From the sequence record MG252615.1: a DNA stretch of 41,317 bases; one strand, given 5' to 3'. A program made the translations under genes and the position numbers. Of the stretch, positions 1 to 41,317 are shown piece by piece; the first letter of the stretch is position 1, and each line of letters starts with the position of its first letter. The notes under the pieces are model-generated. The model did no database searches. It saw only the letters and a program-made list of their open reading frames with translations, and had not been told where the DNA came from. The stretch is from Escherichia phage vB_EcoS_HSE2.

Positions 1-71
1 TCAGTTGCGCATGGTGGTAACGGAAATGGCGTACAAGTATCTTGGTAACGGTGTTTTTGACTCCGTAAGAA
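1..71. repeat. Window-end overlap, copy 1 (identical to 41247..41317); indicates a circular or permuted genome, unit length 41,246 bp
   Basis: First 71 nt match the last 71 nt exactly; the repeat lies inside a continuous coding frame. Confidence 0.85.
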
Positions 72-1093
72 CGCCAAACACACAGGCCGTACAGTCTCTG
101 ATTCGCCTTGCCCGCGACCCGGATGTCGGAGCATTAAATCTGACAACAGCAAATATGGATAAGCTGTTGGCTGTGCAAAACGAAATTGAGAGTTATTTTG
201 GTAGCGCATCCGCCGGCGAGTTTTGCTATACGTTTGATGACTACAAAACTACGATGCAGGACATAGTAACTACGATAGCGGAAGCAATTTTCTGCACCCC
301 ATATCGGAGAGGCGCTGACATTCTTCTTGACTTTGAACGCCCGCGGATTGGTCCCGAGATGGTATTTACCCACCGCAGCAAAACTACCGCTACGGAGAAG
401 TGGACACGCACGTTTAACGACGCTCAGGTATACGATAGTCTCAAGTTCTCTTACATCGACCCAGATACTAACGTCAAAGAGACAATCAGCATCCCAGCCG
501 AAGGTGGGGTTAATACTGAAACGTACGATTCTAAAGGTATCCGTAACTATCGACAGGCATACTGGGCTGCATACCGCCGCTATCAGAAAAACCTGTTGAA
601 GAAGGTGACAGTATCATTCACGGCGACAGAAGAAGGGATTTTTGCAATGCCTGGACGAGCAGTAAGTGTGGTTAAAGGGTCGCGTATGGCCCCACAGGAT
701 GGTTATGTTATCGCCGTTAATGGCCTTACTCTGACGTTATCACAACCGGTTAAGTTCACACCAGGAGACGACCATTCACTCATCCTTAAGAAGCGTGATG
801 GCGGAGTTCAGAGTGTTGCAGTTGTGCCGGGAAGTCACGACCGTGAAGTGATTATGTTATCTGCGCCGCAAGAGGCAATTTACACAGGGAATAGCGCGCT
901 AAAAACTGAGTTTTCATTCGGCAACGAAGCAAGGCATAATGCTCAGATGATTCTTGTTTCTACAGTTGACCCCGGGGATGACAGAACAGTTAAGATTACC
1001 GGTATTAACTACGAAGCGGATTTCTACAAATACGACGGCGTCGCGCCTTTCGGCAGCGGTTTCTCCGACGGATTCAGCAATGGTTTTAGTTAA
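2..1093 (+). CDS. Tail tip / host-specificity protein (lambda J-like), C-terminal part; same ORF as 39775..41317 across the junction
   Basis: Frame open from window start to stop at 1091-1093 and in phase with the ORF that runs off the window end; position after the K-like tail assembly gene. Confidence 0.6.
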   Translation, partial: QLRMVVTEMAYKYLGNGVFDSVRTPNTQAVQSLIRLARDPDVGALNLTTANMDKLLAVQNEIESYFGSASAGEFCYTFDDYKTTMQDIVTTIAEAIFCTPYRRGADILLDFERPRIGPEMVFTHRSKTTATEKWTRTFNDAQVYDSLKFSYIDPDTNVKETISIPAEGGVNTETYDSKGIRNYRQAYWAAYRRYQKNLLKKVTVSFTATEEGIFAMPGRAVSVVKGSRMAPQDGYVIAVNGLTLTLSQPVKFTPGDDHSLILKKRDGGVQSVAVVPGSHDREVIMLSAPQEAIYTGNSALKTEFSFGNEARHNAQMILVSTVDPGDDRTVKITGINYEADFYKYDGVAPFGSGFSDGFSNGFS

Positions 1094-1105
1094 AGAGGAC
1101 TCTAT

Positions 1106-3313
1106 ATGTCAAGCGGATGCGGTGACGTTTTAAGCCTGGCGGATTTACAGACCGCCAAGAAACACCAGATTTTCGAAGCTGAGGTTATCACCGGTAAATC
1201 CGGCGGCGTTGCTGGTGGCGCTAATATTGATTACGCGACAAATCAGGTTACCGGACAGGCACAAAAGACGCTACCGGCTGTTATTGCGGACGCCAACGCG
1301 GATTTCGACGCCCAGATTCTGAACATGGGGTTTACTCGCGTCGGAACCTTTGCAGCAGGCGCAACACTTACCAATCCGCGCCAGACTCTGCTGTGGGACG
1401 TTGCCGATGGGGGCGACGGCCAGGAATACGGATGGAGCGGCGCGTTCCCGAAAGTCGTACCCGCGGCCAGCACCCCGGCATCAACTGGTGGAATTTCTGT
1501 TGGAGCTTGGATTAGCCGATTCGACCCTGAATTACGCATTGCTGTGCGCGAAGTCTTGCGCCGCTCCTACGCCGAGACTGGATATAATCTGGTTGCTGGC
1601 AGCTTCGAGGCTGGTGGCACGGTAACGACCGCCACCGATGTGCTGCTATATGAATCGAAAGGCAAAGCCTACTCCTACTCCGGCACTCTGCCGCACACTG
1701 TTGCGGCTGGCTCCACCCCCAGCGCAGAGCCGGAGGTGTGGCTTGATAGGAGCGATGAGTTAAACGCCGTCAAACAAGTTGGGGCTGTATCTATCGCAAC
1801 AATTAACACTTCCATCGCTGGAATGGCGGATGGCGAGCTAACAATACCCCCCGGTGAATACGCAATCAACGGCGATGTGATAATCCAGTTGAAGAACAAC
1901 GAAAGCACTACCGGGCCTTTTGGGTCGTTTCGCTTAAATGCCGAAGGGGTCCGGTTTACAGGTAGCGGAAATATTATTGTCGATAGCTGCAAGAGACTGA
2001 CTATTGTCGGTATCGATGCGCCAAATCACAATCTTATTTTGCGCGGTTGCTGGTGGAGCAACTTCGAAGGGATGCGATTTAAATACCTAATGCTCGCTGA
2101 TGTGGCGGGAACTGCATTTACAAGCAACTACTGGTGTCAGTGGACAAACTGCCAATTCCAATCCATTAAAACTGGCGCGGCTTCAACGTTCAATAATAAG
2201 TTTGATTGGTATTCATGCTCAATGCGGGGTAACGCAAACCAAGGTTTTTCTGGCCCAGCAGACTATGCATTCGAGTTCAACGCTAACGCAAACGCACAAG
2301 CATGGGTTTTCTGGGGAGGGGATATTAGTTATCACAATATTGCTGTTTACAATGTTGGCGCTGGAAACACAAATGGAGACATTGAGTTGACGTTAGACGG
2401 GACGTATTTCGACACGCTGACCCCCGCTCCAATCAATCGCGCTAGAAGCAGAGTTCAAACAAAGAAGTGTCACTACTCAAACAGTACAACAAGCCTTCCG
2501 AACTCTGCAAAAATGCAGGCTGTTGCTCGCGGCGGGCAGGATATGTTTCGCCAAGACCGCTCCGCCGGTTGGGCGCAATTCTCAGCCATCAACTTCATCC
2601 CTGATGGGGATTTCCGCGTAGGTCTTCCGACTTATGCCGGAGCTGGACGTCCTATCGGAGCATCTGGTGGCGCGGTGATCACCGAAGCGTCCGGTGCAAT
2701 ATCCGGCAGATATCTGAACATCAATCAAGCTGGAACAAGTGGCACCACTCGATTTAGGCCGGTGCCGCTCCCGTTCACAGGCAGATACACCGCAGCAATA
2801 ATCATCCGCAATGCCGACCCTGGAGCTAGAACAATCCGCCTTGGTTTTAACAATCTTTACGAAGTCGCAGAGATTAGCAACACGGACTGGACTTTCTGGA
2901 CTCTGACGGTGGGTGCAGACATTGCAGCAGGGCAGCAGCCAGACATCCAAATCCTGACAAATGACGCAACCCCGTTCAACGTTGATGTTTGCTATGCCGC
3001 AGTAACATTTGGTGAGGGTGGGCAGCCCATGGTGGCGGCCCCAGCAGTTAGTGAGCTACTTGGGTCTGTGTCGTACAATCCGCCGAGTATGGCGACTGGG
3101 ACGGGTGCTAGCACGACAATTACAGTAAACGGTGCGGAGCTTGGTGATTTCGCTATCCCCAGTTTCGGGATAGACCTGCAAGGCATTCAAATGTGGGCTC
3201 AGGTAACCAGCGCAAATACCGTTACTGTGTTTTTCAGAAATGAAACAGGGGCGACGATAGATTCGTTGTCATCAACATTGCGAGTACGTGTAGTGAAGGC
3301 CACGTATGTCTAA
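1106..3313 (+). CDS. Tailspike / tail fiber receptor-binding protein (735 aa)
   Basis: Large ORF after the J-like gene; AGAGGA Shine-Dalgarno; Gly/Asn/Thr-rich repetitive middle typical of beta-helix spikes; followed by a strong terminator. Confidence 0.6.
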   Translation: MSSGCGDVLSLADLQTAKKHQIFEAEVITGKSGGVAGGANIDYATNQVTGQAQKTLPAVIADANADFDAQILNMGFTRVGTFAAGATLTNPRQTLLWDVADGGDGQEYGWSGAFPKVVPAASTPASTGGISVGAWISRFDPELRIAVREVLRRSYAETGYNLVAGSFEAGGTVTTATDVLLYESKGKAYSYSGTLPHTVAAGSTPSAEPEVWLDRSDELNAVKQVGAVSIATINTSIAGMADGELTIPPGEYAINGDVIIQLKNNESTTGPFGSFRLNAEGVRFTGSGNIIVDSCKRLTIVGIDAPNHNLILRGCWWSNFEGMRFKYLMLADVAGTAFTSNYWCQWTNCQFQSIKTGAASTFNNKFDWYSCSMRGNANQGFSGPADYAFEFNANANAQAWVFWGGDISYHNIAVYNVGAGNTNGDIELTLDGTYFDTLTPAPINRARSRVQTKKCHYSNSTTSLPNSAKMQAVARGGQDMFRQDRSAGWAQFSAINFIPDGDFRVGLPTYAGAGRPIGASGGAVITEASGAISGRYLNINQAGTSGTTRFRPVPLPFTGRYTAAIIIRNADPGARTIRLGFNNLYEVAEISNTDWTFWTLTVGADIAAGQQPDIQILTNDATPFNVDVCYAAVTFGEGGQPMVAAPAVSELLGSVSYNPPSMATGTGASTTITVNGAELGDFAIPSFGIDLQGIQMWAQVTSANTVTVFFRNETGATIDSLSSTLRVRVVKATYV

Positions 3314-3360
3314 TTTAGCTCAAGCGGAATGGCATCAAGTTGCTGGATAAGAACTATTTA

Positions 3361-3387
3361 AAACTAAGGCCCCGAACGGGGCCTTTT
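3361..3387. terminator. Bidirectional rho-independent terminator at the convergent junction of tailspike and early operon
   Basis: Stem AAGGCCCC/GGGGCCTT with 4-nt loop, T-run after and A-run before. Confidence 0.7.
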
Positions 3388-3526
3388 CTCTACTCTTCGG
3401 ATAACTTCTCCAGTACAAACGCCAGTTGCGCATTAGCGGCATCTCTCTGTTGCCGTAGTCGTAGAACCTCCTCCTCAAGTTCCTTGATACGTTTTTGCAA
3501 TGCCGGAATCGGGGCTATGATGTTCA

Positions 3527-3718
3527 TCATTCGAACTCCATAAAATCACCATTTACCGACTCTGTGTAAATTAGTCCTGTTCTATCATCGTAACACGCGC
3601 CCCAACGATTGGCGGTGTTATCCATCACCACGAATTGCCCGCCACCCTTGTACTCCGCGACGTAATAATTACCTTCATCGAAAACACCTATAGTAGAACT
3701 TACGCAAAACAGTTTCAT
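3527..3718 (-). CDS. Hypothetical protein (63 aa), last gene of leftward early operon
   Basis: ORF with ATGA overlap to the upstream helicase gene. Confidence 0.4.
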   Translation of the reverse strand: MKLFCVSSTIGVFDEGNYYVAEYKGGGQFVVMDNTANRWGACYDDRTGLIYTESVNGDFMEFE

Positions 3719-5145
3719 TTCTTACCTCGTCTCTTCATGTAATTAAGCAACTCTTCTTGGACAGATTTCTTCTCGTCTGTACGCGCGGCAACAACCTCGT
3801 CCAGCGTGTCTTTAGCAACGATATGATACAGGAACACCGGGCGCTCGTGGCCCGCCTGTTTCTGGCGTACCGGGCCTATACGCTCGACAACCTGCAAATA
3901 GTGCTCAAGGTTCCAGCCTTGCGAAATAAACGCCAGATGATGTCCGCCGTCCTGTAAATTCAAACCATGGCCGGCTGACGCGGGGTGCACGCATAGGATT
4001 TCGATTTCGCCACGGTTCCACGCTTCCATCTGCTTATTGCCCTTCGCGCCTTTTGCAAAAGCCTGTGCCTGAGGGAATCGCTTAAGGATGCGCTCCAGTT
4101 CGTGCTTAAACTGATAGGCTACCAGTAACGGCGCACCCTGCAACTCCTCGGCAATGGACTCCAGCGCGTCCAGTTTCGTGTCGTGCACTTTCTCCCAGTC
4201 TTTGGTTGCCTCACCGTCTGGCCCCGACACATATACGGCACCGGAGGCAATCTGCAAACACTTTGACGTCTTCGCCGCCGCGTTAGCCGCTTCAACTTCT
4301 CCGCTCTCCAGTTCCGCGAATAACTTCTCCTCCATATCGATGTACGCCTGACGCGCCTTCTTCGGCAGGTCGATTTCAACCTGCACTATAATAGGCGCTT
4401 CACATCCGAACCACTCAGCGGCGTCAATCGTGAGACTAATGTCCTTCATCTTCTGGTGGATCTCATTATCTGCACCAGGACGCGCATGATACTCCCGCGC
4501 CATCGCCGACTTACCTTTTTGCACAGAGTTGAACCAGCGGTCGGTGAACGCAGTGTACGATGAACCGAGGCGCTCGCCAGCGTCGATAAACCAGTTCTGG
4601 CCCCACAGGTCTTTGAGGCCGTTAGGCGACGGTGTACCAGTCAGGTTGATAAAACGCTTAACCTTTCCGAACGCCACTTTACTTAGCGCCTTCGCCCTCT
4701 TGCTACCGCCAGACCGGCTACGGAATGATTTAAGCTTCGTGCTTTCATCGGCAACAATAACAGTAAAAGGCCAGTCGTCTTTGCCATAGTAGTCAATCAG
4801 CCACTCGATAACTTCGTAGTTCGTGCATACCACGTTAGCGTCCGACTCCAGCGCCGCGATGCGGCGCTTCTCCGAACCAGTTGCGTCTACGACACTCAGA
4901 CAAGGGAAATTCCAACGTGCCTGTTCCGCGGGCCATGTGCCAGACGCAACTCGCAGCGGGGCGAGGATTAACACTCGGTCGTCGTCATTAAGTTGCCCAT
5001 TACGGAACAGTCGATTGAGAACCCACATTGTCGACGAGGTCTTGCCGCCGCCCATACCGCACCAGATATTGCAACGTGGGTGCTGTAGCATAAACGACGT
5101 CATGAGCTTCTGGTACTCTCGACGGATAAATTTAGACATAATCAA
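3715..5145 (-). CDS. Superfamily 2 (SNF2/DEAD-like) DNA helicase
   Basis: Walker A GMGGGKT near N-terminus, DExx box (IVADEST), helicase C-terminal region. Confidence 0.7.
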   Translation of the reverse strand: MIMSKFIRREYQKLMTSFMLQHPRCNIWCGMGGGKTSSTMWVLNRLFRNGQLNDDDRVLILAPLRVASGTWPAEQARWNFPCLSVVDATGSEKRRIAALESDANVVCTNYEVIEWLIDYYGKDDWPFTVIVADESTKLKSFRSRSGGSKRAKALSKVAFGKVKRFINLTGTPSPNGLKDLWGQNWFIDAGERLGSSYTAFTDRWFNSVQKGKSAMAREYHARPGADNEIHQKMKDISLTIDAAEWFGCEAPIIVQVEIDLPKKARQAYIDMEEKLFAELESGEVEAANAAAKTSKCLQIASGAVYVSGPDGEATKDWEKVHDTKLDALESIAEELQGAPLLVAYQFKHELERILKRFPQAQAFAKGAKGNKQMEAWNRGEIEILCVHPASAGHGLNLQDGGHHLAFISQGWNLEHYLQVVERIGPVRQKQAGHERPVFLYHIVAKDTLDEVVAARTDEKKSVQEELLNYMKRRGKK

Positions 5146-21287: not shown

Positions 21288-21382
21288 TGTACATCCCGCC
21301 CAATTCCCTTATATAATCCCTTTAGACGCGTAGGGCGCGTCTGGTGCGCTCTGATGGTCAGACGCATATGCAAGGGGATTCT

Positions 21383-21928
21383 ATGAAGCTGAAACTTAAG
21401 CAGCCATCGCCAGAGGTGGTGCAAGCTGCACATGAAGAAGCTGTTAGCGCAAACCGTCGCCGTAAACGACCGCGCGGCAAACAGAGTCTTTATCAATCAT
21501 CCCGTAATTCCGCCGCGTTGTGGGACCCGGGCTATTGCGATGCATTAATCAAGTTCTTCGACCGCACGTCATGGGAACTTGTGCCTACATCTAAGGGTGA
21601 CGAACGTCCGCTGATTCAGGATAAACCGCCGTCACTGGCCCGCTTCGCCTTGCACATCGGCGTCACTATCCCGATTATTAAGCTGTGGCTGCGTGAGATT
21701 CCCGCATTTGCCGAAGCCTATGAAACAGCGCAGGCACTTGAAGAGGCATACTTCACCGAGACAGGCGCGGCGGGTATCTCTGCTACGTTTGCCGCAGCTA
21801 AGCTAGGCCTTAGCAAAGAGAAACCAGTTGAATCCACCGAAGAAACAGCACCGACTGAGATTGTTTTCAGTGTTGCAGAGCCTGTAGGTAAAATCGTAAC
21901 AACGAATATGGGCGAGGTAGAGGAATGA
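21383..21928 (+). CDS. Putative terminase small subunit
   Basis: Immediately upstream of, and overlapping, the large terminase; AAGGGGA Shine-Dalgarno; basic N-terminal region. Confidence 0.5.
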   Translation: MKLKLKQPSPEVVQAAHEEAVSANRRRKRPRGKQSLYQSSRNSAALWDPGYCDALIKFFDRTSWELVPTSKGDERPLIQDKPPSLARFALHIGVTIPIIKLWLREIPAFAEAYETAQALEEAYFTETGAAGISATFAAAKLGLSKEKPVESTEETAPTEIVFSVAEPVGKIVTTNMGEVEE

Positions 21929-23175
21929 GTATTCAGCTATCGGCCCCGCAGGCATTGTTCCTGAATTGTGATAACAAGTACAAGGCCTACGTCGGCGGCT
22001 TCGGAAGTGGCAAGACATTTGTTGGCTGCCTTGACCTGCTTACGTTTATGCTCAAGCACCCAAGTACGCGCCTGGGCTACTTCGGCCCGACCTATCCCGC
22101 CATCCGTGACATCTTCTACCCAACATTCGAGGAAGCGGCTAACCTGCTCGGCCTTGATGTGCTGGTTAAATCCGGCGACAAAGAGGTTGTGGTTACGCGC
22201 GGTAAGACTGTGCTCGGGACCGTTATCTGCCGTTCGATGGATAACCCGGGGTCTATCGTTGGTTTCAAAATCGCTGCGGCAGTCGTCGATGAGCTGGACG
22301 TATTGAGCCGTGAAAAAGCTGAACTGGCGTGGAACAAAATTGTGGCCCGTATGCGTCTGGTTATCCCCGGCGTAACTAACCACATCTCTGTCACCACGAC
22401 ACCGGAAGGGTTCAAGTTCGTCTATGCCAAGTTCAAAGAGAACCCGACGCCGAGTTACTCGATGGTGCAGGCTTCTACACACGAGAACGCGCGATTCCTG
22501 CCGCCTGACTACATTAGCTCACTGACCGAGACTTACCCCGCGCAACTGATTAACGCGTACCTGAACGGTGAGTTCGTTAACCTGACATCCGGCAGCGTGT
22601 ATTATGCGTATGACCGTCGCAAGCACCGCAGCAAAGAGACAATTCAACCGGGCGATACACTGTACATCGGGCAGGACTTCAACGTTACGAAGAACGCCAG
22701 CGCCGTGTATGTGCAACGTAAAGACGGCTGGCACGCGGTGGCAGAACTGAAAGGCCTGTTCGATACGCCGGACACCGTGCGCGTAATTACAGAGAAGTGG
22801 AAGTCACAAGGCCACCGCATCGTCGTTTACCCGGATGCCAGCGGCAAGAACCGCAAGACTAACTCGGCGTCAATCTCTGATATTGCGTTACTACAGCAGG
22901 CAGGGTTTGATGTTCGCGCTAAATCTGCCAACCCCCCGGTTAAAGACCGTGTTTTAGCGGTGAATACCGCGCTGGAAAAAGGTAAGCTGTGGATTAACGA
23001 CCACTTATGCCCTGAGATAGCGAAGACGCTGGAACAGCAGGCATACGACGATAACGGAGAGCCAGCTAAAGACGGCGTCATTGACCATATGGCGGATGCT
23101 CTCGGCTATCCTGTAGTTTACGAGATGCCGGTGGTTAAACCAGTAATCAACATCCCGGTGACTTTCGCACTTTAA
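21925..23175 (+). CDS. terL: Terminase large subunit
   Basis: Walker A GGFGSGKT, Walker B VVDELD, C-terminal nuclease-like acidic residues. Confidence 0.85.
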   Translation: MSIQLSAPQALFLNCDNKYKAYVGGFGSGKTFVGCLDLLTFMLKHPSTRLGYFGPTYPAIRDIFYPTFEEAANLLGLDVLVKSGDKEVVVTRGKTVLGTVICRSMDNPGSIVGFKIAAAVVDELDVLSREKAELAWNKIVARMRLVIPGVTNHISVTTTPEGFKFVYAKFKENPTPSYSMVQASTHENARFLPPDYISSLTETYPAQLINAYLNGEFVNLTSGSVYYAYDRRKHRSKETIQPGDTLYIGQDFNVTKNASAVYVQRKDGWHAVAELKGLFDTPDTVRVITEKWKSQGHRIVVYPDASGKNRKTNSASISDIALLQQAGFDVRAKSANPPVKDRVLAVNTALEKGKLWINDHLCPEIAKTLEQQAYDDNGEPAKDGVIDHMADALGYPVVYEMPVVKPVINIPVTFAL

Positions 23176-23186
23176 GAGGACAACAA

Positions 23187-24680
23187 ATGGTTTCCGCAAA
23201 CATTAACGCAGGGCAAGGGCAGAACGTTAAAACCCGCCACCGCCAGTACGAAGAGTATTTCCCTAAGTGGCAGAAGGTGCGACATGCGCTTTCTGGCGAC
23301 CTGACATCGTATCTACGTGACGTCGGTAAGAATGAGCCGGACCCGGTTTACGGTCGCCAGCGTCAGGCTGAATACGAAGCGGGGGCAATTTGCTACAACT
23401 TCACCAAGCGAACGCTTTCAGGCATGGTCGGCAGCGTAATGCGCAAAGACCCCGAGATGATTATTCCGTCTCAGATGGAATACCTGACCACTAACTGTGA
23501 CGGGTCGGGCGTTGGCCTGTGGCAGCACGCACAGGATACTCTGTATGAGATTGATGCTGTTGGTCGCGGTGGTTTGCTGGTTGACGCCCCCGCGGTAGAA
23601 GTAGCTACCATGGCAGAGCAAAACGAGGGTTTACTAAACCCAACAATCGCTTTCTACACCGCAGAGAACATCATCAACTGGCGTCTCCAGCGCGTCGGGT
23701 CTGTTAATCGTGTGGTTATGGTTGTATTGCGTGAGGAATACGAGTACACCGATGGCGCGGATGAGTTCAGCCCCAACTACGGCGAGCAATACCGAGTCCT
23801 TGATATTTTCGAAGGCCAGTATCGCCAGCGTCTGTACCGCTTTAACCAGAAAGGTGCACTGATGGAAGGTGGCTATATCGAAATATTCCCGAAACTCGGT
23901 AATATTCCGGTCGGGGTGATTCCGTTCACATTCATTGGTGCAGGGAATAACGACTCAACCCCTGACGATGCACCTTTGCTGCCGTTGGCTGAACTAAACA
24001 TAGGACATTTCCGCAACAGCGCAGACAATGAGGAGTCCAGTTTCGTTGTAGGTCAGCCAACTCTGTTCATCGCCCCGGGTGAGAACATGAGCATGGAACA
24101 GTGGAAAGAAGCCAACCCACACGGCGTGCGCATGGGGTCGCGTTCAGGCCATAACATTGGTTACGGCGGCAATGCGTTTCTGGTCCAGGCCGGTGAGAAC
24201 AACCTAGCCAAGCAGAACATGTTGGATAAAGAGAACCAGGCAATCCAGATTGGTGCACAGCTTATTACCCCGACGCAGCAAATCACCGCGGAATCGGCAC
24301 GCCTGCAACGTGGTGCCGACACGTCCGTTATGGCGACAATTGCACGTAACGTAAGCATGGCGTATACCGATGCGCTGAAGTGGGTTGCTGGTATGCTTGG
24401 GCTTAGTGACGGCACTGAAATTGAGTTCAAACTGAACATGGAGTTCTTCCTGCAACCAATGACCGCCCAGGACCGCGCTCAGTGGATGGCGGACATTAAC
24501 GCCGGCTTGCTACCCGCCACCGCTTATTATGCTGCGTTGCGTAAGGCCGGTGTAACTGACTGGACCGACGAGGATATTCAGAACGCTATCGAAGACGCGC
24601 CGCTGCCGTTAGGTGCAAATACTCAGGTAGCGGGGGAGATTCCGCCGTCGGCGCAGCAACAAGATACCATTCAGCGGTAA
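23187..24680 (+). CDS. Portal protein
   Basis: About 497 aa directly after terL; conserved gene order. Confidence 0.7.
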   Translation: MVSANINAGQGQNVKTRHRQYEEYFPKWQKVRHALSGDLTSYLRDVGKNEPDPVYGRQRQAEYEAGAICYNFTKRTLSGMVGSVMRKDPEMIIPSQMEYLTTNCDGSGVGLWQHAQDTLYEIDAVGRGGLLVDAPAVEVATMAEQNEGLLNPTIAFYTAENIINWRLQRVGSVNRVVMVVLREEYEYTDGADEFSPNYGEQYRVLDIFEGQYRQRLYRFNQKGALMEGGYIEIFPKLGNIPVGVIPFTFIGAGNNDSTPDDAPLLPLAELNIGHFRNSADNEESSFVVGQPTLFIAPGENMSMEQWKEANPHGVRMGSRSGHNIGYGGNAFLVQAGENNLAKQNMLDKENQAIQIGAQLITPTQQITAESARLQRGADTSVMATIARNVSMAYTDALKWVAGMLGLSDGTEIEFKLNMEFFLQPMTAQDRAQWMADINAGLLPATAYYAALRKAGVTDWTDEDIQNAIEDAPLPLGANTQVAGEIPPSAQQQDTIQR

Positions 24681-28375: not shown

Positions 28376-29344
28376 ATGTCTCTGTCAGATATGAAGGTTT
28401 ATAACGACGACATCGTCGGTACTACTATCGAACTTCTTGGCCAGAAAACTGACCAGTTTAACGCAGCCTCCGGTGGTGCAATTGTACTGTCTACCGCTTC
28501 ATGGCGCGGTGACTTCTCCCGTGAGTCTTTCTTTAACCAGATTGCCTCCGCTAAACGCCGCGTCGACCGTTACGCCGCTATCGCGTCTCAGGCAGCTACC
28601 GCGCTGACTCAGGGCGAGCATGTAGGCGTTAAAGTCGCTGGCGGCTTCGGACCGGTACTGTTCGAGCCTGCGCAAATGACCTGGCTTAACGAAGACCCGG
28701 CAAGCGCGATTCGTGCTATTTCCGAAGGCTTCTCTGACGCGCTGTTAGCTGACCAGCTTAACACTGCTGTTGGTGCCGCTGTTGCCGCGGTCTCCGGTCA
28801 GACAGCACTGGTTAACGATGTATCTGCATCCGCAGGCCTGTCTCTGAACGTGTTGAACAACAGCCACGCTAAATTCGGCGACCAGTCTCAGTTGCTGATT
28901 ACCGACATCATGACCGGCGCTGCTTACCACACTCTGGTGGACAAAGCGCTGACCAACGCAAACCAGTTGTTCGTTGCCGGTAACGTTATGGTTGTTGATG
29001 TCCTCGGTAAGCGTTATGTAATCTCCGACATCCCTGCACTATACGAAGCTGGTACCCCGAACAAGACTAAGGTCCTGTCCGTAGTTGCAAACGGAATCAT
29101 CGTAGATAATGCTTCTGACATTATCAGCAACATTGACACCAGCAACGGTAACACCCGCATCCAGACCACCTGGCAGGCGGACTACAGCTTCGGCCTGAAA
29201 CTGAAAGGCTATAGCTGGGATGTTACCAACGGCGGTAAATCTCCGCTGGATGCAGAACTGTTCACTGCGTCCAACTGGGACAAAGCTGTTGCCGAGAACA
29301 AGCACACCCTCGGTACTCTGGCAATCGCCGACGCAGACCTGTAA
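28376..29344 (+). CDS. Major capsid protein
   Basis: 322-aa ORF between scaffold and a strong terminator; position and size fit an HK97-fold capsid. Confidence 0.7.
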   Translation: MSLSDMKVYNDDIVGTTIELLGQKTDQFNAASGGAIVLSTASWRGDFSRESFFNQIASAKRRVDRYAAIASQAATALTQGEHVGVKVAGGFGPVLFEPAQMTWLNEDPASAIRAISEGFSDALLADQLNTAVGAAVAAVSGQTALVNDVSASAGLSLNVLNNSHAKFGDQSQLLITDIMTGAAYHTLVDKALTNANQLFVAGNVMVVDVLGKRYVISDIPALYEAGTPNKTKVLSVVANGIIVDNASDIISNIDTSNGNTRIQTTWQADYSFGLKLKGYSWDVTNGGKSPLDAELFTASNWDKAVAENKHTLGTLAIADADL

Positions 29345-33035: not shown

Positions 33036-33062
33036 AACTAAGGCCCCGAAAGGGGCCTTTTC
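33036..33062. terminator. Bidirectional terminator, near-identical to the one at 3361..3387
   Basis: AAGGCCCC-GAAA-GGGGCCTT plus T-run; A-rich upstream. Confidence 0.7.
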
Positions 33063-33293
33063 TCACTCATCAATGTTACTCCTGTATTCTCGTAACTTCT
33101 CCAGGCTTTCAATTGCTTCTGCTAAGTCGGTTCCAGTGTCCTTGTGCCCTCGAAGGCCCATACACAATAGCTTCTTCAATGCGTGCTGTAACGCAGGGTC
33201 GCGGATGTCGAAAGCACGTAGCACATCGTAAACGTCTACAGTCATAGTGCTGCCGTGAGTGTTTGTCATTGTGCGGTTGTATTTTGAAGTCAT
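33063..33293 (-). CDS. Hypothetical protein (76 aa), last gene of leftward cassette
   Basis: ORF track. Confidence 0.4.
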   Translation of the reverse strand: MTSKYNRTMTNTHGSTMTVDVYDVLRAFDIRDPALQHALKKLLCMGLRGHKDTGTDLAEAIESLEKLREYRSNIDE

Positions 33294-33306: not shown

Positions 33307-33777
33307 CTACTCATGGTTTTCATGGAAACCGTATTTACTCTCGGCGGCTTTACGCGCAGCAACCGCTACATCAAAATCGTCGTAAAGCCCTAAATGCACT
33401 TGTTTGTAGTTAACTTTTATAAACGCGCGCCACTTACCCGCGGCTTTGTGGAAACTTACGCCTGTAGCCCCGGATTTATTTATCTTTCGCATAGTTTTAT
33501 TTTTACTGTTCCCTGTATTGTCGGTGGCGCGTAGATTTTCTATTCTATTGTCTAGCCTGTTATGGTTTATGTGGTCTATTTGAGTTTTCCTGTCTAAGTT
33601 GCATTTATTATAAAGACACCATGCTATGCGGTGGACATACACTGTTTTACCACCCATACCGCAGCACAGATAACCTCTTACACCAACCGTACCAACCTCA
33701 GCACCAGTAGATAACCTGGTAACCCTCCCAGTCTCAGGGCAGTATTTAAATTGTTTTGAAACATCAAGATATTTCAT
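33307..33777 (-). CDS. HNH homing endonuclease with AP2 domain (paralog of 9184..9675)
   Basis: HNH motif IDHINHNRLDNRIEN; AP2-like GATGVSFHKAAGKWRAFIKV...AARKAAESKYGFHENHE. Confidence 0.75.
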   Translation of the reverse strand: MKYLDVSKQFKYCPETGRVTRLSTGAEVGTVGVRGYLCCGMGGKTVYVHRIAWCLYNKCNLDRKTQIDHINHNRLDNRIENLRATDNTGNSKNKTMRKINKSGATGVSFHKAAGKWRAFIKVNYKQVHLGLYDDFDVAVAARKAAESKYGFHENHE

Positions 33778-34904
33778 CTTAGCATCTCCGGTGAGATTGA
33801 AAGCCTACCTACTTCCCCGAACTCTGAACTATAGGTTATGACATTAGCGGACCTCTTAGACATCCACCCGCCGCGAGAAGCATATGCATCTTTCGCCGCG
33901 AGAGTGCGATGCTGCTCCACTACCATATTCCTACTTTCTACGATCTTTTGGTGGTGGAGATGCCCAACATGTGCATAACTGTACTCGCTTTCGCCGAATG
34001 CTTTTCTGAACTTAGCTATCATAATGGGTTCGACCACCTCAAACCGGCATTTATGCCCGTGTGTAAAGAACAGAGTCGTTTTGCCGTGTTGCACCATCTT
34101 GTAAACATCCGGCGACGTATCGACGAACACACGCGGCTCATTGTCATATAGCGTGCTGAACATCTCAGCTAACCAAATCATTCCGCTTTCGTCGTGGTTA
34201 CCTTGAACGATTAAAAGTTTTACTGTGTGATGCTTAACCAGCGCCATATCGACAACACGACGCACCATACGAATCATGTAGCGAACTAGTTTCTGATAGC
34301 GAGTATCGGCGTCTAACACATGACGCGACTCAGGGGTAACGGCATCAAGACTATCGAAGTGCGCGAAGTCTCCTAGCAGATTAATAACTCCTGTTCCCGC
34401 GTCCGGTGCTTTCTGAAACGCCGCGTCGAACCATCGAGAGAACAGGTCTTCTGCAATCTTCATGTCCCAGTCGTCGCCGCTCTCGTCTGCCCATGCAAGC
34501 ATACCGAGATGGAAATCAGACACAGTGTAAAGATTGAGAAGTTTATCGTCGCGTTTGGCGCGAGTCGCTTTAACAGGCGCAACAGGTGTAATCTCTGACT
34601 TCATGCCTTCAATTACGGCTTTCATCAACTCGACCTGACGTTCAGCATCGGTGTCAGTCTTAACCCATTGCAACTTAGTGTTGCCGAACTCGTCCACCAG
34701 GGACGACGTGCCTTTAATCTTGTAGCCGTCCGGCACAAGGTGACTAACGTCGCGCCCGTGGCCTACACCTTTCTTAGCCAGCTTCGCTTTACGGATACGA
34801 ATAACGCGGTCTGAGATGCCGTATTTACGGGCGATATCAATAATCTTCATCCCGGCGTTCAATTCTTCCTGTAACTGTTCGTCGGTTATTTTCTTCTGGG
34901 CCAT
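33774..34904 (-). CDS. Calcineurin-like metallophosphoesterase with N-terminal HTH domain
   Basis: Phosphoesterase motifs DFHLG, GDFAHFD, GNHDE, THGH, GHLHH in canonical order; N-terminal IIDIARKYGISDRVIRIRKAKL helix-turn-helix; GAGGAAG Shine-Dalgarno. Confidence 0.65.
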   Translation of the reverse strand: MAQKKITDEQLQEELNAGMKIIDIARKYGISDRVIRIRKAKLAKKGVGHGRDVSHLVPDGYKIKGTSSLVDEFGNTKLQWVKTDTDAERQVELMKAVIEGMKSEITPVAPVKATRAKRDDKLLNLYTVSDFHLGMLAWADESGDDWDMKIAEDLFSRWFDAAFQKAPDAGTGVINLLGDFAHFDSLDAVTPESRHVLDADTRYQKLVRYMIRMVRRVVDMALVKHHTVKLLIVQGNHDESGMIWLAEMFSTLYDNEPRVFVDTSPDVYKMVQHGKTTLFFTHGHKCRFEVVEPIMIAKFRKAFGESEYSYAHVGHLHHQKIVESRNMVVEQHRTLAAKDAYASRGGWMSKRSANVITYSSEFGEVGRLSISPEMLR

Positions 34905-34942
34905 GCTTACTTCCTCGTGTTTAGGATTTGTCTTATAGTAGC

Positions 34943-35149
34943 CTACTTCTCTTTCACGTTCGAGTTGCAAGCCCAGATTAAAATAAATACCCACGGCAGC
35001 AGAACCCAGCCAAGAAACAGGTTAGCCATGAATATAGCTAACTTCGCTTTATGGTTACGGAAGTACGCAACCAGGAAAGGTGCGAAATAAGCGAGCAGTG
35101 CAAACAGAATTAAGGAAACTGGTAAACTGGACATTTTAAACCCCTTCAT
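34943..35149 (-). CDS. Superinfection-immunity-like small membrane protein (Imm family-like)
   Basis: Two TM segments with R.H..KLAIF..NLFLGW...PW...LIWA, matching my recollection of the Imm-superinfection family consensus. Confidence 0.55.
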   Translation of the reverse strand: MKGFKMSSLPVSLILFALLAYFAPFLVAYFRNHKAKLAIFMANLFLGWVLLPWVFILIWACNSNVKEK

Positions 35150-35164
35150 TGTTGGTGTAAGTGA

Positions 35165-35193
35165 ATAGTACCCTATTATATTGGGGTGTGCAA
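35165..35193 (-). promoter_or_regulatory. Middle-class promoter driving the Imm/phosphoesterase/HNH cassette
   Basis: Minus strand TTGCAC-ACCCCAATATAATAGGG-TACTAT; transcription start only about 9 nt before the Imm ATG. Confidence 0.6.
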
Positions 35194-35718: not shown

Positions 35719-36083
35719 ACGCGTTGCTCCAGTTTGCCCGTTGGAACTTCATAGCCCGCCACAAACGGCGGGAGTTTGACAGTATTGCCGACGGGCATAA
35801 AGCCGCGCTAATTGCTATGGGGGTTATGCAAGATGCGCCGGAAGCAACGCAGGACACCGGGCCGGAATGCCCCCCTGAACTATTAACCACCTTCGAGAAG
35901 TACCGGGAAATCAAATTTACCCGCCGAGTGGATGACGATGGCATCAAGATGTACCCGCGCGAACAGTTAAGATGGTCGGATTTAGTGGCATACAGCACCG
36001 TTTCAGGCCAGAATATAGGCATGTTTGAATCTGACATCATCATGAGCTTAGACGCTATTTTCGAGGGTAGAAACGATGGCTGA
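35667..36083 (+). CDS. T-like extension reached by probable -1 frameshift from the chaperone (GT product)
   Basis: -1 frame open from 35667, overlapping the last 17 codons of the G-like ORF and ending at the tape-measure start. Confidence 0.4.
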   Translation, partial: TRCCFPQRTASPIAGKVDALLQFARWNFIARHKRREFDSIADGHKAALIAMGVMQDAPEATQDTGPECPPELLTTFEKYREIKFTRRVDDDGIKMYPREQLRWSDLVAYSTVSGQNIGMFESDIIMSLDAIFEGRNDG

Positions 36084-38412
36084 TGTAGCTAGTTTAGTTG
36101 TAAAAGTATCAGAGCAAGGCGCGAAAGCTACATCAGACCGTCTTGATAACCTTTCCAAGTCTGCAAAGGTAGCCGGAGCTGCGGTAGCGGGCCTCGCTTC
36201 CATCGTCGCCGCTACCGCTTACAAGGCCGCACAGGAACTGGTAGAATCCCAACGGCAACTGGACAAGATGTCCGCCAGCCTGAAAACACTAACCGGAAGC
36301 ACGCAGGGTGCAAGACAGGCGTTAAGCATCCTGCAAGACTTCGCGCGCGACACTCCGTATGGCCTTGAACAGGCGGTAGAGGGATTCCGTAAACTTGTGG
36401 CGCTTGGTCTTACACCGTCAGAAGAAGCGTTGCGTTCCTACGGAAACACCGCCGCTGCTATGGGTAAAGACCTGAATCAGATGATTGAGGCGGTTGCAGA
36501 CGCTAGTACTTTTGAATTTGAGCGCCTTAAAGAATTTGGTATCAAGGCCAAACAGAACAAAAACGATGTTGAATTTACATTCCAGGGTACTACTACGGTA
36601 GTTAAGAAGAGCGCTGCCGACATCGAGCAATACCTGCTCAACATCGGTAACGTAAACTTCGCGGGGGCTATGGCGGACCAGGCCAACACACTTAACGGGG
36701 CCATCGCCAGTGCCAGCGACTCATGGTCGCAGTTAAAAATGACACTGGCTACCAGTCTTGATGTTGGTGCGCTCGCCGAACCTATCCGATACATCGATGA
36801 TTTAATCCAGGAACTTAACGCACAGGTTGCATCCGGTGAACTTGCCGCAGAGATGCGTATGTGGGGTGACATCGCGTCGGAAGTAGGAAGCGCAATAGAG
36901 ATGTCATTCGACGCGGCATTTGGTTTCGTGGGTGATGCGATAAACGGGCTAAATGAGCTTTGGGATTTTAGCAGCAAAAGTATCACGGATAGCGGCGAAC
37001 AAACGGCGACAACCATAGCGGAATCAGCCGCCGATGCGCTCGATTTCATCGCGGAAGAATTTACCGCGATGGAGCGCTTCTTTGAGGATATGGTTAAAGG
37101 GGCGCAGGATGCCGGTCGGCTGGTTAAGGCCGCCTTCACACCAGGGGAATCCGTAGACGTAGCAAAAAATATTAACTTCCAGCTGGGGATGGCACTGGAT
37201 ACTCAGCGCGACGTTGCGGACCTGACACGTAAAAGTTTCCGCGAACAGGTGGAGGCTCAGCAAAATATCGTCGCGCTTAAACGCGCAGCGTATGACATCG
37301 ACAAAGAAGCCGCTAAGGAAGAAGGGCTTAGTAAATTTAAGGTAACTGGTACCGGCGGCGGATCTGAAGATGATAGCGCGGGTGCAAAAGCCGCTAAGAA
37401 AGCAGCGGATGCGTTCGAGCGCCAGAAGAAAGCCGCGGAGGATTTCTACTATCAGTCAATTCATCTCAATGATGACGTATTCCAGAAAATAGAAGCCAAC
37501 CAGGAACAGCAGTTAACCAAGCTACAGGAGTTTTACGGCAATCAGCTTCTTAGCGACCAGCAGTACGAAAACGCCAAGACGCAGATTATGCTGGAAGCGG
37601 ACACTGCTCGCCAGGAGGAACTCGCTAAACGAGAGAAAGAACGGCAGGAAAAGAACCAGAAAGGTGACGACTTCATGGCTCAGATTATGGGCCAGAACGC
37701 TACTGAGCTTGAGCTTCTCGACATCCAGGAACAGCAGAAACTGGCTGTAGCAGATAAATACCGCGAACAGGGTCTGATTAACGAGGAACAGTATCAGGCG
37801 GCGCTTAACGCCATCAACGAGCAGTACGCCACGAAACGTGCGGATGCTTTAGGTAGTTCTTTCGGTGACATGGCGGCTAACGCTAAAACAGCATTTGGCG
37901 AGGCGTCCACCGCGTATAAAGCGTTCGCTATTGCTCAGGCCACAATCGCCACGTACACATCGGCTATTGAGGCGTATAAGTCAACGGCTGCTATCCCTGT
38001 TGTCGGCCCATTCCTGGCTCCGGTTGCCGCGGCTACCGCCGTTGCTGCGGGGCTGGCTAATATCGCCAAAATCCGCTCGGCGCGTGAACAGGGCGGTCAG
38101 TTATCCGCGGGTCAGATGTCAACTATAGCGGAACGTGGTAAGCCAGAAGTTATCATGCCCGCGGGTGCATCGCGTGTGCGCACCGCGCAGCAGATGAAAG
38201 AAATCATGGGGCAAAACGGCGGCCAGTCCGGCGGTGATAACGTGACAATCGTCAACAACACCACCGGACGCGTTGATTCTGCCGTAACAGAACGTGACGA
38301 CGAAGGGCGGTTACGTATTATAATCAGTGAAACAGTAGCGTCGCAGTTACAGGATAACAACTCACCGATTTCTAAAGCTCGCCGCTCTACTCGCGGTCAG
38401 CCGGGGTACTAA
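36076..38412 (+). CDS. Tail tape measure protein
   Basis: 778 aa, Ala/Gln/Glu-rich helical repeats; canonical position. Confidence 0.85.
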   Translation: MADVASLVVKVSEQGAKATSDRLDNLSKSAKVAGAAVAGLASIVAATAYKAAQELVESQRQLDKMSASLKTLTGSTQGARQALSILQDFARDTPYGLEQAVEGFRKLVALGLTPSEEALRSYGNTAAAMGKDLNQMIEAVADASTFEFERLKEFGIKAKQNKNDVEFTFQGTTTVVKKSAADIEQYLLNIGNVNFAGAMADQANTLNGAIASASDSWSQLKMTLATSLDVGALAEPIRYIDDLIQELNAQVASGELAAEMRMWGDIASEVGSAIEMSFDAAFGFVGDAINGLNELWDFSSKSITDSGEQTATTIAESAADALDFIAEEFTAMERFFEDMVKGAQDAGRLVKAAFTPGESVDVAKNINFQLGMALDTQRDVADLTRKSFREQVEAQQNIVALKRAAYDIDKEAAKEEGLSKFKVTGTGGGSEDDSAGAKAAKKAADAFERQKKAAEDFYYQSIHLNDDVFQKIEANQEQQLTKLQEFYGNQLLSDQQYENAKTQIMLEADTARQEELAKREKERQEKNQKGDDFMAQIMGQNATELELLDIQEQQKLAVADKYREQGLINEEQYQAALNAINEQYATKRADALGSSFGDMAANAKTAFGEASTAYKAFAIAQATIATYTSAIEAYKSTAAIPVVGPFLAPVAAATAVAAGLANIAKIRSAREQGGQLSAGQMSTIAERGKPEVIMPAGASRVRTAQQMKEIMGQNGGQSGGDNVTIVNNTTGRVDSAVTERDDEGRLRIIISETVASQLQDNNSPISKARRSTRGQPGY

Positions 38413-38415
38413 TTA

Positions 38416-38910
38416 ATGAGCGATTTGAGATTCCCTATGTCCCTTCGCCCGATAGTGTCGAAGGGGTACTCCCAGACAAGGGGGAGTAATATCTGGCGCA
38501 CCGAGGTTCAGGGTGGCTTACCCCGGCAGGGGCGAGACACGTACTTTGAACCAGTGCCTATTAGTGTAACGCTTGTCGTGTCTTCTCTCGGGCGCCAGGC
38601 GTTTTATAGCTTCCTGAATCACATAGATGGCGGCGCATCGTCTTTCATAATGCCGCATGATACAGGTATGGGCATCGAGGACCACCAGGTACTCATCACA
38701 TCGACTATTAGTGACAGCACCGACGACGGCAAGAACTGGGTAATCTCGTTCACCGCAACAGCAGAACGCACAGCGATTCAGGAAGACACATGTCTTACGA
38801 AGAATCTGCCGGATTTGTTCGGCTGCTATGGGGATTGCTTAGGCGGATTCCTTAAAGCATACGGAACCGCGCAATCAACGTTTCCACGTATTTGGGACCC
38901 AATGCAATGA
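38416..38910 (+). CDS. Minor tail protein (lambda M-like)
   Basis: Gene order after tape measure. Confidence 0.55.
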   Translation: MSDLRFPMSLRPIVSKGYSQTRGSNIWRTEVQGGLPRQGRDTYFEPVPISVTLVVSSLGRQAFYSFLNHIDGGASSFIMPHDTGMGIEDHQVLITSTISDSTDDGKNWVISFTATAERTAIQEDTCLTKNLPDLFGCYGDCLGGFLKAYGTAQSTFPRIWDPMQ

Positions 38911-39422
38911 GCCAGGAATCAGTAGAAGCCGCATATCGTCGTAAACTGGCGTCTAACCCAGACGGCGAACTGGATTACATTACTCTTGAAATAACGCACC
39001 CGCTTCTCTCAAAGCGGTGGTTGCTCGTGCGCGGGACGTCTGACCTTACCGCTACGCTTGAGACTGGCGAAACCGTTACGTTCGAAGCAACCCCTATGGA
39101 CGCCAAGAACGCCGCGAACAATAATGACATGGACCAGACAGCTTCATTCTCACTGCCGGATGTTCTTAACATTCTCGATGAAGAGATGGACCGCATCCCC
39201 TACAGCAATACCGAGCTGCCTAAATTCATATTCCGCCGTTATGTAAGCACAGACCTGTCGTACCCGTGCGACGGCCCGGTGGTGTACGAGTTGCAGACGT
39301 TGACGCAAGAAAAAGGAGTGTTCACCGCAGAGACCGGAACGCCTATGCTCAACCAACGGCAGACAGGAATCCTGATGACGCCAGAAGAAATTCCGCTGCT
39401 GCGCGGGGTACTTTTGTCATGA
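38907..39422 (+). CDS. Minor tail protein (lambda L-like)
   Basis: Gene order; ATGA coupling. Confidence 0.55.
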   Translation: MSQESVEAAYRRKLASNPDGELDYITLEITHPLLSKRWLLVRGTSDLTATLETGETVTFEATPMDAKNAANNNDMDQTASFSLPDVLNILDEEMDRIPYSNTELPKFIFRRYVSTDLSYPCDGPVVYELQTLTQEKGVFTAETGTPMLNQRQTGILMTPEEIPLLRGVLLS

Positions 39423-39784
39423 GTATCACGGACTATACGGGTATCCCTTATGACTTCCGTCGTTACAATTGTTGGCATCACGTGCGCAGGGTACGCGGCG
39501 ATGTTGGCCTGCCTACGCCAACCTTCGATGTAACATCACCAACTGCGATAGCCTCGGCGTTTGACGCAGGGCACTCCGACCCGAAAGGTCTGGAACGCGC
39601 CACCAGTCCGCAGAATTATGACGCCGTGTTGCTGGGCACTTATCACAGATGGCGTGTAGTGTGGCACGCTGGCGTGTATTATGACGGTATGGTAAGCCAC
39701 TGCGAGTTGGCGTCCAGACAAGTGCGCCTTGACCGACTGGACGATTTACGTGACACATATCAGGAGATTGAATTTTGGCGATAG
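39419..39784 (+). CDS. Tail assembly protein (lambda K-like, NlpC/P60-type)
   Basis: Cys-His segment YNCWHHV; gene order between L-like and J-like. Confidence 0.5.
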   Translation: MSITDYTGIPYDFRRYNCWHHVRRVRGDVGLPTPTFDVTSPTAIASAFDAGHSDPKGLERATSPQNYDAVLLGTYHRWRVVWHAGVYYDGMVSHCELASRQVRLDRLDDLRDTYQEIEFWR

Positions 39785-41317
39785 TCATCCACTACACCCG
39801 CAACGAAGACGGGACATTCACACAAAAACGGCATAACGACTCGCCGCTGAATTTCGTCGTAAACCATATCCCTGATGGTGTGCCGTTCCGCGTTTTCCTC
39901 GAAGAGATAGGGGAGGATAACGACGTAACAGAAGATTTTGACGCATTAAAACAGGACGCCGTTTTTCACGTCCTGGAAGGTGCCGGCGGCGGTGTTATCA
40001 AAGGTGTGATGAAAGTGTTCAGCATAATCCTTAAACCGCTGGCTAAATTACTTACACCGTCAACGAAGGGTGCGTCTAACAATCTCGCTAACCAGCAAGC
40101 AGACTCCCCGAACAACAGTCTGACAGACAGGAATAACAAAGCTCGCCCATACGAGCGAACTTATGACATCTGCGGCCGCGTGCAGACGATACCCAATAAC
40201 CTTATGACCACTTATAAGGTTTTCGATAACGCAGGTCGTATCATCGAGTACGGCTACTATGATGCCGGTCGCGGGTATCTGGATGTTAAAGCAGAAGACA
40301 TCACCGACGGCGACACCAAAGTCCAGGAGATAACCGGAACTTCTGTTGCCGTGTATGCCCCGTACACATCACCCAATAACACAAGCTCCCCGCAAATTCT
40401 TGTCGGCGAACCTATCGGACAAGGGTTGTATATAACAATAGCGTCCAATGAAGTAGATGGTGTGGTTCTAAAAGCACCTAATGACCTGGCTAATAATGTT
40501 GGTAATTCTTCGCGTGCCAGACTTGTGGGGGCAACAGGGACCGTAACGGACCCTACAGGCGACTCGGCTTTTAATACATACATATCCCCGGGGGACCAGG
40601 CCACTTTTACGTGGATACGTCCGGAAGGTGGGGGTAACCTTGACGGAGTCTACACAGTATTAAGTGTGGACGAGTTCCAGATAACGGTAGATGCTTCACC
40701 AAAACTATCTGAGTGGCAGACCTTACCGGACCGCGGCGGCGGAATCCGCGAAGGGTACGTTACGGCAGATAAAGCGGCGACTATTGGCCCGACTGATACA
40801 TATAGCGCTAGCCTGACGGATTGGGTATCCCTTAACCGAATCCCGGTGGAACGTGTAGTTGCTAATTTCGCCGCCGCGAATGGGATGTTTAAGGATGACG
40901 GCAACAAACAAAGCGCATCGGCAACGATAGAAGTTCAGTACCAGCTAATTGGCGACGGCGGGGGTGCTTACGGCCCAATCTACACCAAACAGGGAACTAT
41001 TTCCGGCAGAAGCAGCGATTACACTGGGGTTACTGTCTACGCTGACCTTCCTGTTAAATCTAAGGTACGTGTTCGCTGCCGTCGTGTATCTGGCACTGAC
41101 CGCGACTTCTCCGGAACAGTGTCAGATGAAGTTTCGTACATAAATCTGTACGGGCAGTCTGTTGACCGAACCCCTCATTATGGCAACCGAACGACCGTGC
41201 ATTCCGCGCGCAAGCAGACGCCACGAGCCGCAGAGGTTAAGCAACCTCAGTTGCGCATGGTGGTAACGGAAATGGCGTACAAGTATCTTGGTAACGGTGT
41301 TTTTGACTCCGTAAGAA
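39775..41317 (+). CDS. Tail tip / host-specificity protein (J-like), N-terminal part; continues at 2..1093
   Basis: AGGAG 8 nt before TTG 39775; frame checked codon by codon to the window end with no stop. Confidence 0.6.
   Translation, partial: MAIVIHYTRNEDGTFTQKRHNDSPLNFVVNHIPDGVPFRVFLEEIGEDNDVTEDFDALKQDAVFHVLEGAGGGVIKGVMKVFSIILKPLAKLLTPSTKGASNNLANQQADSPNNSLTDRNNKARPYERTYDICGRVQTIPNNLMTTYKVFDNAGRIIEYGYYDAGRGYLDVKAEDITDGDTKVQEITGTSVAVYAPYTSPNNTSSPQILVGEPIGQGLYITIASNEVDGVVLKAPNDLANNVGNSSRARLVGATGTVTDPTGDSAFNTYISPGDQATFTWIRPEGGGNLDGVYTVLSVDEFQITVDASPKLSEWQTLPDRGGGIREGYVTADKAATIGPTDTYSASLTDWVSLNRIPVERVVANFAAANGMFKDDGNKQSASATIEVQYQLIGDGGGAYGPIYTKQGTISGRSSDYTGVTVYADLPVKSKVRVRCRRVSGTDRDFSGTVSDEVSYINLYGQSVDRTPHYGNRTTVHSARKQTPRAAEVKQPQLRMVVTEMAYKYLGNGVFDSVR
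41247..41317. repeat. Window-end overlap, copy 2 (identical to 1..71)
   Basis: Exact 71-nt identity with window start. Confidence 0.85.

Follow-up and report, generated by a model that had tools for sequence, protein, structure and literature searches.

What does it mean that a phage genome sequence ends on the very nucleotides with which it begins, and that it does so in the middle of a gene? The DNA considered here, the record of Escherichia phage vB_EcoS_HSE2 (MG252615.1), was analysed over its whole length of 41,317 nt, and we refer to this stretch as the window. A preliminary description had observed that bases 1-71 equal bases 41247-41317 and had read this as an overlap left by circular assembly and not as a true terminal repeat. 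The two copies, both taken on the plus strand, are indeed identical at 71/71 positions (100%) and reach the two extremities exactly; when the whole window was tested, prefix and suffix agreed at this one length only. Each copy begins with TCAGTTGCGC and ends with CCGTAAGAA, and the probability of such a match by chance (about 4^-71) is negligible. A repeat finder returned this pair as the sole long exact direct repeat in the window, the next family measuring 39 nt at 74% identity. Removal of one copy from the 41,317 nt leaves a unit genome of 41,246 bp, a size inside the range of its relatives (40.6-45.6 kb). Scans of the window for tRNAs and Rfam families gave no matches. In exact searches, a 101-nt pattern across the junction was absent from the viral contigs searched, and a 30-nt pattern was absent from the viral, metagenome and genome collections searched.

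Does the unit genome close into a circle? Its sequence runs collinear with that of the complete phiSD1 phage genome around the whole circle, with about 70% of the bases identical overall (70.5%), which bears out the proposal that the window holds one full genome plus 71 nt. Window positions 37558-41240 correspond to phiSD1 2478-6160 and positions 1-1270 to phiSD1 6167-7436; at the junction itself, window 41246 falls on phiSD1 6166 and window 1 on phiSD1 6167, which are consecutive. In megablast comparisons of the tail region (38000-41317), identity was 97.3% to SZH-1, 96.7% to BUCT823, and 91-92% to vB_kpnM_D1 and phiSD1. The first 25 kb align with many members of the genus Kagunavirus at about 87-94% identity across 62-78% of their length; a genus test on this portion gave 72% coverage at 89.7% identity, and a coverage of 80% or more was reached by no record. 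Assignment to Kagunavirus calls for roughly 70% or more nucleotide identity genome-wide together with a shared gene order, and the window falls within the genus at the border of this range; SZH-1 is classified in Kagunavirus. Judged by these alignments, the window is the complete genome of a virulent Kagunavirus-type (Guernseyvirinae) siphovirus coliphage; the Kagunavirus group consists of virulent siphoviruses that infect E. coli and its relatives. The phage probably represents a distinct, new species-level mosaic of this well-known and well-sampled genus, because the first 25 kb find no counterpart at that coverage and identity to phiSD1 is about 70% overall.

The junction lies within a gene for a predicted central tail fibre or tail tip protein. 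When the ends are joined, an open frame extends from 39772 to a stop codon at 1091-1093. Its likely start is a TTG codon at 39775, located 8 nt past a putative ribosome-binding site (AGGAG, 39762-39766) and overlapping the stop codon of the upstream gene (39782-39784). The 5' part of the gene (39775..41246, plus strand) contributes 1472 nt and the 3' part (1..1093, plus strand) 1093 nt including the stop, which together make 2565 nt, or 854 aa plus stop, exactly the single ORF of about 854 aa that had been claimed to run over the junction. Both SZH-1 and phiSD1 are annotated with an uninterrupted tail protein CDS of the same length, 2565 nt, and the joined product aligns with the SZH-1 tail protein (URG18186) without gaps and at equal length, 840 of 855 codon positions being identical when the stop is counted (98%). 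The first 71-nt copy (1..71) extends from the third base of codon 491, a codon composed of 41245-41246 and base 1, to the first base of codon 515. Profile matches pass over this site as well: phrog_31307 matches residues 1-270, and phrog_469 ('tail protein') matches residues 287-842, straight over the junction at codon 491. A further match, of phrog_31 ('central tail fiber J') to residues 573-835 (E=2.5e-21), makes the label 'J-like' acceptable as a statement of remote homology, with the Pfam domain FNIII-A_GpJ scoring below threshold (21 bits against a cutoff of 27).

The surroundings of this gene form a tail module, all on the plus strand. A putative tape measure gene (36076-38412) is matched by Pfam TMP_3 at 35.7 bits, below the 41-bit cutoff, and is followed by three distal tail genes 5' of the J-like gene (approximately 38437-38910, 38907-39422 and 39419-39784), for which Pfam DUF1833, phrog_384 and phrog_329 were recorded; the boundaries of the tape measure and distal tail genes were set by comparison with the annotation of SZH-1 and phiSD1. 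Directly 3' of the J-like gene lies a predicted tailspike gene (1106..3313, 735 aa; Pfam Tail_spike_N, E=1.9e-20). Its product is 99.9% identical to that of BUCT823 and 99.0% identical to that of SZH-1 at the amino acid level, and among the relatives compared it is common to these two phages only. The gene content further lists a major capsid protein (28376-29344). Exact look-ups placed the capsid protein on a single sequence, a Logan contig of 1.65 kb, and returned nothing identical to the tailspike or the large terminase protein.

Are the 71 nt then present once or twice in the phage? A circularised junction piece (38000..41246 joined to 1..5000) aligned with SZH-1 in one HSP of 8,245 nt at 96% identity, and when both 71-nt copies were left in this piece, the alignment broke into two HSPs, both of which included the same 71 nt of SZH-1. 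For a junction-centred probe of 600 nt, the alignments with BUCT823 (98.2%), vB_kpnM_D1 (93.6%) and phiSD1 (84%) were free of gaps. Since the junction alignments contain no gaps, these relatives must carry the 71 nt once. Moreover, 71 is not a multiple of 3, and two copies in tandem would therefore truncate the J-like ORF: in such a construct, it stops at codon 520, six codons past the junction.

The records of related phages provide a second line of evidence. That of phiSD1 in GenBank has an exact prefix-suffix overlap of its own, 141 nt long and located at the equivalent of about 35.0-35.16 kb of the window, and that of SXAU_B4 has an end overlap of 87 nt at the equivalent of about 33.0 kb. 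The record ends of BUCT823, D1, BEU35 and BCH953P1 map to the equivalents of about 17.07, 34.95, 26.08 and 21.81 kb, respectively; many further relatives have records that conventionally begin at terS or terL, and defined ends are stated in none of the records. Three overlaps of three lengths at three sites within one phage group are, as far as these records tell, the product of assemblers, unlike physical ends, which would be conserved. Because overlap lengths and positions differ and record ends are scattered, the 71-nt repeat is best explained as an artefact of assembly or representation rather than as a physical end. We thus agree with the preliminary description on this point: the repeat lies in the middle of a conserved gene, is single in relatives, would shift the frame if doubled, and has counterparts of other lengths at other sites in phiSD1 and SXAU_B4. 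From what the alignments indicate, the second copy (41247..41317) is a redundant representation artefact, and an ordinary one, not a real terminal repeat. We infer that its length reflects a k-mer or overlap setting of the assembler, being odd like the k values of de Bruijn assemblers, even though, to our knowledge, neither SPAdes nor MEGAHIT uses 71 as its default final k. Comparable identical contig ends of 77 bp, with genes spanning the ends, have been described for phage contigs from SPAdes (PMC9409062).

How is the DNA packaged, if the sequence closes on itself? Headful packaging had been considered likely on the grounds that both terminase subunits are present. The genes are readily located. 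The predicted small subunit TerS (21344..21928, plus strand; 194 aa, GTG start) matches phrog_3064 ('terminase', E=1.2e-72) and equals the annotated TerS of phiSD1 in length; searches against Pfam and NCBIfam gave no match to it. It overlaps by 4 nt the start of the large subunit TerL (21925..23175, plus strand; 416 aa; Pfam Terminase_6N, Terminase_6C and Terminase_3), which is followed by a portal protein gene (23187..24680, plus strand; 497 aa; Pfam DUF4055; phrog_145 portal, E=2e-147). Yet TerS and TerL are present in every tailed phage, including those with cohesive (cos) ends and those with direct terminal repeats (DTR). The argument from the two subunits consequently fails, because cos and DTR phages encode both of them too. 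Headful packaging nevertheless stands as probable on other grounds, namely the relationships of TerL and the data available for relatives.

The end overlap by itself does not discriminate between packaging modes; it shows merely that reads bridge the ends. Contigs of the cos-type Chi-like phages Se_F2 and Se_F6b also have genes across their ends (PMC9409062), and contigs with terminal repeats also result from DTR or cos genomes undergoing replication (PMC9610469). This leaves room for a reading in which the overlap is an artefact and packaging is not headful. Fixed ends would then be located elsewhere, either as cos sites or as a DTR collapsed by the assembler, and the contig would have closed because some reads came from concatemers, from replicative circles or from cos ends joined by ligation. 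One result on a relative counts for headful packaging and yet, being purely negative, leaves some room for this reading: the Kagunavirus phage fBC-Eco01, whose TerL is 99.0% identical to that of HSE2 at the amino acid level, showed no obvious termini in PhageTerm (PMC9825357). In the literature on direct determination of termini in named Kagunavirus members, this negative result was the only entry found; for a siphophage of about 43 kb and 51% GC in a study that mentions Kagunavirus, the termini are given as 'not determined'.

Data from the wider subfamily point against fixed ends. The TerL of HSE2 is 54% identical in amino acid sequence to Jerseyvirus TerL proteins, including those of the K-series from Kenya, and the Jerseyvirus group from Kenya, represented by K47, has been judged headful on the basis of PhageTerm, an EcoRV pattern that corresponds to a circular map, and a broad band in PFGE (PMC10783031). 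The ends of the Guernseyvirinae phage Se_F1 are redundant, random and permuted (PMC9409062), another Guernseyvirinae phage, Shashou, is pac-type by prediction, and there is evidence of circular permutation for the Jerseyvirus phages RA112, RA124 and RA140. The scattered or conventional starting points of the relatives' records, described above, likewise argue against defined ends.

We also compared a TerL profile built from 32 sequences with nine reference terminases from the phage collection. SPP1, P22, T4 and ES18 are headful phages; T7 (gp19) has a short DTR, and lambda (gpA) and HK97 (gp2) have cos ends. By hmmsearch, the profile matched SPP1 G2P (1.2e-6), P22 gp2 (1.7e-5), T4 gp17 (1.4e-3) and ES18 gp2 (5e-3); T7 gp19 (E=0.058, -1.7 bits) and Mu gp28 were not significant, and lambda gpA and HK97 gp2 were unmatched. 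No DTR-type relationship of TerL was thus found, T7 being the sole DTR representative compared. In HHalign, the probability was low for all nine references, with SPP1 at the top (13%) and T7 gp19 at 1.1%. The NCBIfam model TIGR01547 (PBSX-family large terminase) scored 54 bits on TerL against a cutoff of 105, and neither phmmer with TerL nor the 32-sequence profile matched a terminase in the PDB. An AlphaFold model of TerL (pLDDT 79.7) found its best full-length Foldseek match in the PDB with D6E TerL (E=2e-22), followed by Sf6 gp2 and T4 gp17. These matches to a predicted model confirm the TerL fold and discriminate little between packaging types, because all TerL proteins share this fold. 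Typing by reference terminases is thus suggestive only. Taken with the data on relatives, these sequence relationships make headful packaging very probable if the overlap is an artefact, and we consider fixed ends elsewhere in the genome unlikely.

A second alternative holds that the 71 nt are a genuine short DTR, that virion DNA measures 41,317 bp with fixed ends inside the J gene, and that the gene becomes whole again only when recombination between the repeats has turned the DNA into circles or concatemers. The shape of the contig, bounded on either side by an exact direct repeat, formally fits this idea, and its consequences would be unusual: late tail-gene expression would be coupled to the joining of genome ends, an intact J gene becoming available only once the injected DNA has circularised or formed concatemers. 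Such a repeat would, however, interrupt an essential and conserved structural gene, and it would do so at a position not common to relatives, whose ends lie elsewhere and whose own overlaps (87 and 141 nt) occupy other sites. Known DTRs are found at genome ends that are non-coding or coincide with gene boundaries, and they are usually longer than 100 bp, which also counts against a repeat of this kind. With a TerL that shows no significant similarity to the short-DTR terminase of T7 and an almost identical TerL in fBC-Eco01, a phage in which no termini were seen, we regard a true terminal repeat as very improbable. Still harder to credit is a real tandem duplication within the J gene of a longer molecule, be it a concatemer or an integrated copy, from which the window was cut at both copies, since beyond the existence of two copies nothing speaks for it, and the truncation of J at codon 520 by a duplication whose length is not divisible by 3, the presence of one copy only in relatives, the spacing of exactly one genome length with copies exactly at the window ends, and a phage genome without flanking host DNA all speak against it. 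An origin of the window from a prophage or plasmid was considered separately and rejected, given the absence of host flanks and the collinearity around the circle with genomes of isolated phages.

How might an artefact of this kind arise from a population of packaged genomes? We consider it very likely that the window is one contig that closes on itself with a 71-nt assembly overlap, and that headful packaging is the probable cause. The phage would replicate to concatemers, as the families involved suggest, and packaging by TerS and TerL would begin in or close to a putative pac region. The motor would then fill the head to slightly more than one genome length, whereupon TerL would cut irrespective of sequence. 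Because cutting would disregard sequence, successive headfuls would be permuted and each molecule would be terminally redundant, giving rise to a population without a fixed end. Reads from such a population would cover every junction, and the assembly graph would form a cycle, to be written out from an arbitrary opening point with a short overlap. We envision that the assembler travelled around a sequence without a unique end and came to a halt once 71 nt had been read a second time; the breakpoint of the contig would have come to lie inside the 854-aa J-like gene by accident, and the 71 nt would be single in the true genome. That the reads close on themselves would thus most probably be owed to headful packaging.

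The practical consequences concern curation. Trimming the last 71 nt would yield the unit genome of 41,246 bp, in which the J-like gene should either be annotated as one CDS of 854 aa over the origin or be made contiguous by re-opening the sequence at terS (21344). If neither is done, gene callers will split the tail gene into two truncated ones, and small errors will enter the genome length and the gene count. The records of phiSD1 and SXAU_B4 indicate that at least two public relatives still carry untrimmed overlaps. On the positive side, a terminal direct repeat of a contig, commonly labelled 'DTR', is used to flag viral contigs as complete, and the 71-nt overlap is useful evidence of genome completeness in this sense. 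For phage biology there is nothing new in these observations, as closing contigs and headful packaging are standard in Guernseyvirinae.

The features of the window can be set against four known systems. The first is the terminal k-mer overlap of contigs from de Bruijn assemblers, which it resembles in the exact repeat at both contig ends and in the arbitrary mid-gene site, and also in that trimming one copy yields a closed, complete genome. With the headful phages P22, SPP1, Sf6 and ES18 and with Jerseyvirus, HSE2 has in common the order terS-terL-portal; among the references, its TerL is significantly similar only to terminases of the headful type, and the nearest folds are those of D6E, Sf6 and T4, but the similarity in sequence is remote, with an identity of at most 23%.

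The J-like gene, for its part, invites comparison with lambda gpJ. It is preceded by the tape measure gene and by three small genes for distal tail proteins, of which one is gpL-like (DUF1833) and one gpK-like (NlpC/P60), in an order that resembles lambda H-M-L-K-J, and the phrog_31 match to residues 573-835 adds to the likeness. The lambda J protein comprises 1,132 aa, whereas the J-like protein has 854 aa and the Pfam GpJ FNIII-A domain remains below threshold in it. A further difference is the separate downstream tailspike of HSE2, and it is probably this tailspike that carries receptor recognition. The last system is Kagunavirus itself, as exemplified by SZH-1, BUCT823, fBC-Eco01 and K1G. 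Here the agreement extends over genome size, gene order and nucleotide identity, and includes the placement of a tailspike gene after a J-like gene for a central fibre, which has been described for this genus in the BASEL paper (PMC11990801). HSE2 departs from these phages in the probable mosaic make-up of its genome, of which the first 25 kb are covered to 80% or more by no record, in its overall identity of about 70% to phiSD1, and in a tailspike that it shares with BUCT823 and SZH-1 only.

The small palindrome AATAG-N4-CTATT occurs eight times in the window, against 0.02 copies expected by chance, and nine times in the related phage phiSD1, against 0.04 expected. The window copies lie at 5375-5388, 9156-9169, 11763-11776, 15239-15252, 16277-16290, 16600-16613, 26820-26833 and 35164-35177. 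Three of them, read on the minus strand, fall inside the spacer, 17 nt long, of sigma-70 promoters close to the consensus, TTGACA-N17-TATAGT (5398-5370, 9179-9151 and 11786-11758); these promoters precede the gene blocks for helicase, DNA polymerase and exonuclease. A longer conserved box, GTGAATAGTAnCCTATTATnTTGGGGTGnGCAA, is common to the palindromes at 15239 (in minus-strand reading), 26820 and 35164; no obvious -35 element accompanies it, and the copy at 16600 carries a more diverged version. Two boxes of this type precede the late operons for head and tail. The palindrome looks like a repeated promoter/operator element that is the target of a phage-encoded regulator.

What might bind these sites? 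A 71-aa ORF on the plus strand (11851-12066) has, judged by eye, what looks like a helix-turn-helix sequence of the XRE/Cro type, and its equivalent in phiSD1 is annotated as a 'repressor'. Some 65 nt separate this ORF from the palindrome-bearing promoter at 11786-11758, and its transcription runs away from that promoter. In this virulent phage, its product is a candidate AATAG-N4-CTATT-binding factor.

Near-identical hairpins of high GC content, each leading into a run of T (GGCCCCGAA[C/A]GGGGCC-TTTT), are found 3' of the tailspike gene (3359-3390) and of the tail tube gene (33033-33064), and a related copy is present in inverted orientation at 8425-8455. All three are probably shared intrinsic terminators at module boundaries, and they might act bidirectionally. 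A minus-strand block (33307-34994), with the tail tube gene on one side and the tail chaperone genes on the other, opposes the direction of the structural operon. It contains a minus-strand ORF of 406 aa (33774-34994), whose equivalent is annotated as a 'phosphatase' in SZH-1; the phiSD1 annotation is 'DNA repair exonuclease'.

Assembly overlaps, 141 nt and 87 nt long, have been left untrimmed in public 'complete genome' records of two relatives: in phiSD1 (PQ571306) bases 1-141 equal 41932-42072, and in vB_EcoS-K1_SXAU_B4 (OQ696342) the last 87 nt equal the first 87 nt. The stated genome lengths are overlong by 141 nt and 87 nt, respectively.

The large terminase subunit of the window, TerL (21925-23175), is at least 95% identical to that in 73 phage records, including fBC-Eco01, DUEC01, fTaEco01 and phiEc4, whereas identity is only about 54-55% to TerL of the Guernseyvirinae E. 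coli phages vB_EcoS_SCS92 and ZCEC5 and of Jerseyvirus. SCS92 nevertheless has a nucleotide identity of about 87% across most of the first 25 kb of the window. Next in similarity are the TerL proteins of marine Pseudoalteromonas and Vibrio phages, at 56-58%. Inside the genus, the terminase is mosaic.

At the nucleotide level, phiSD1 offers no match to the part of the tailspike that binds the receptor (window 1271-3405). At the protein level, the tailspike (gene 1106-3313) is shared at 99% identity or above with BUCT823 and SZH-1 only; an Aeromonas phage protein is the next best match at 45%, and the likeness of K1ind tailspikes, about 42%, is limited to the first ~270 residues. The tailspike is a swapped host-range module, and in possessing one this phage is typical of its group.
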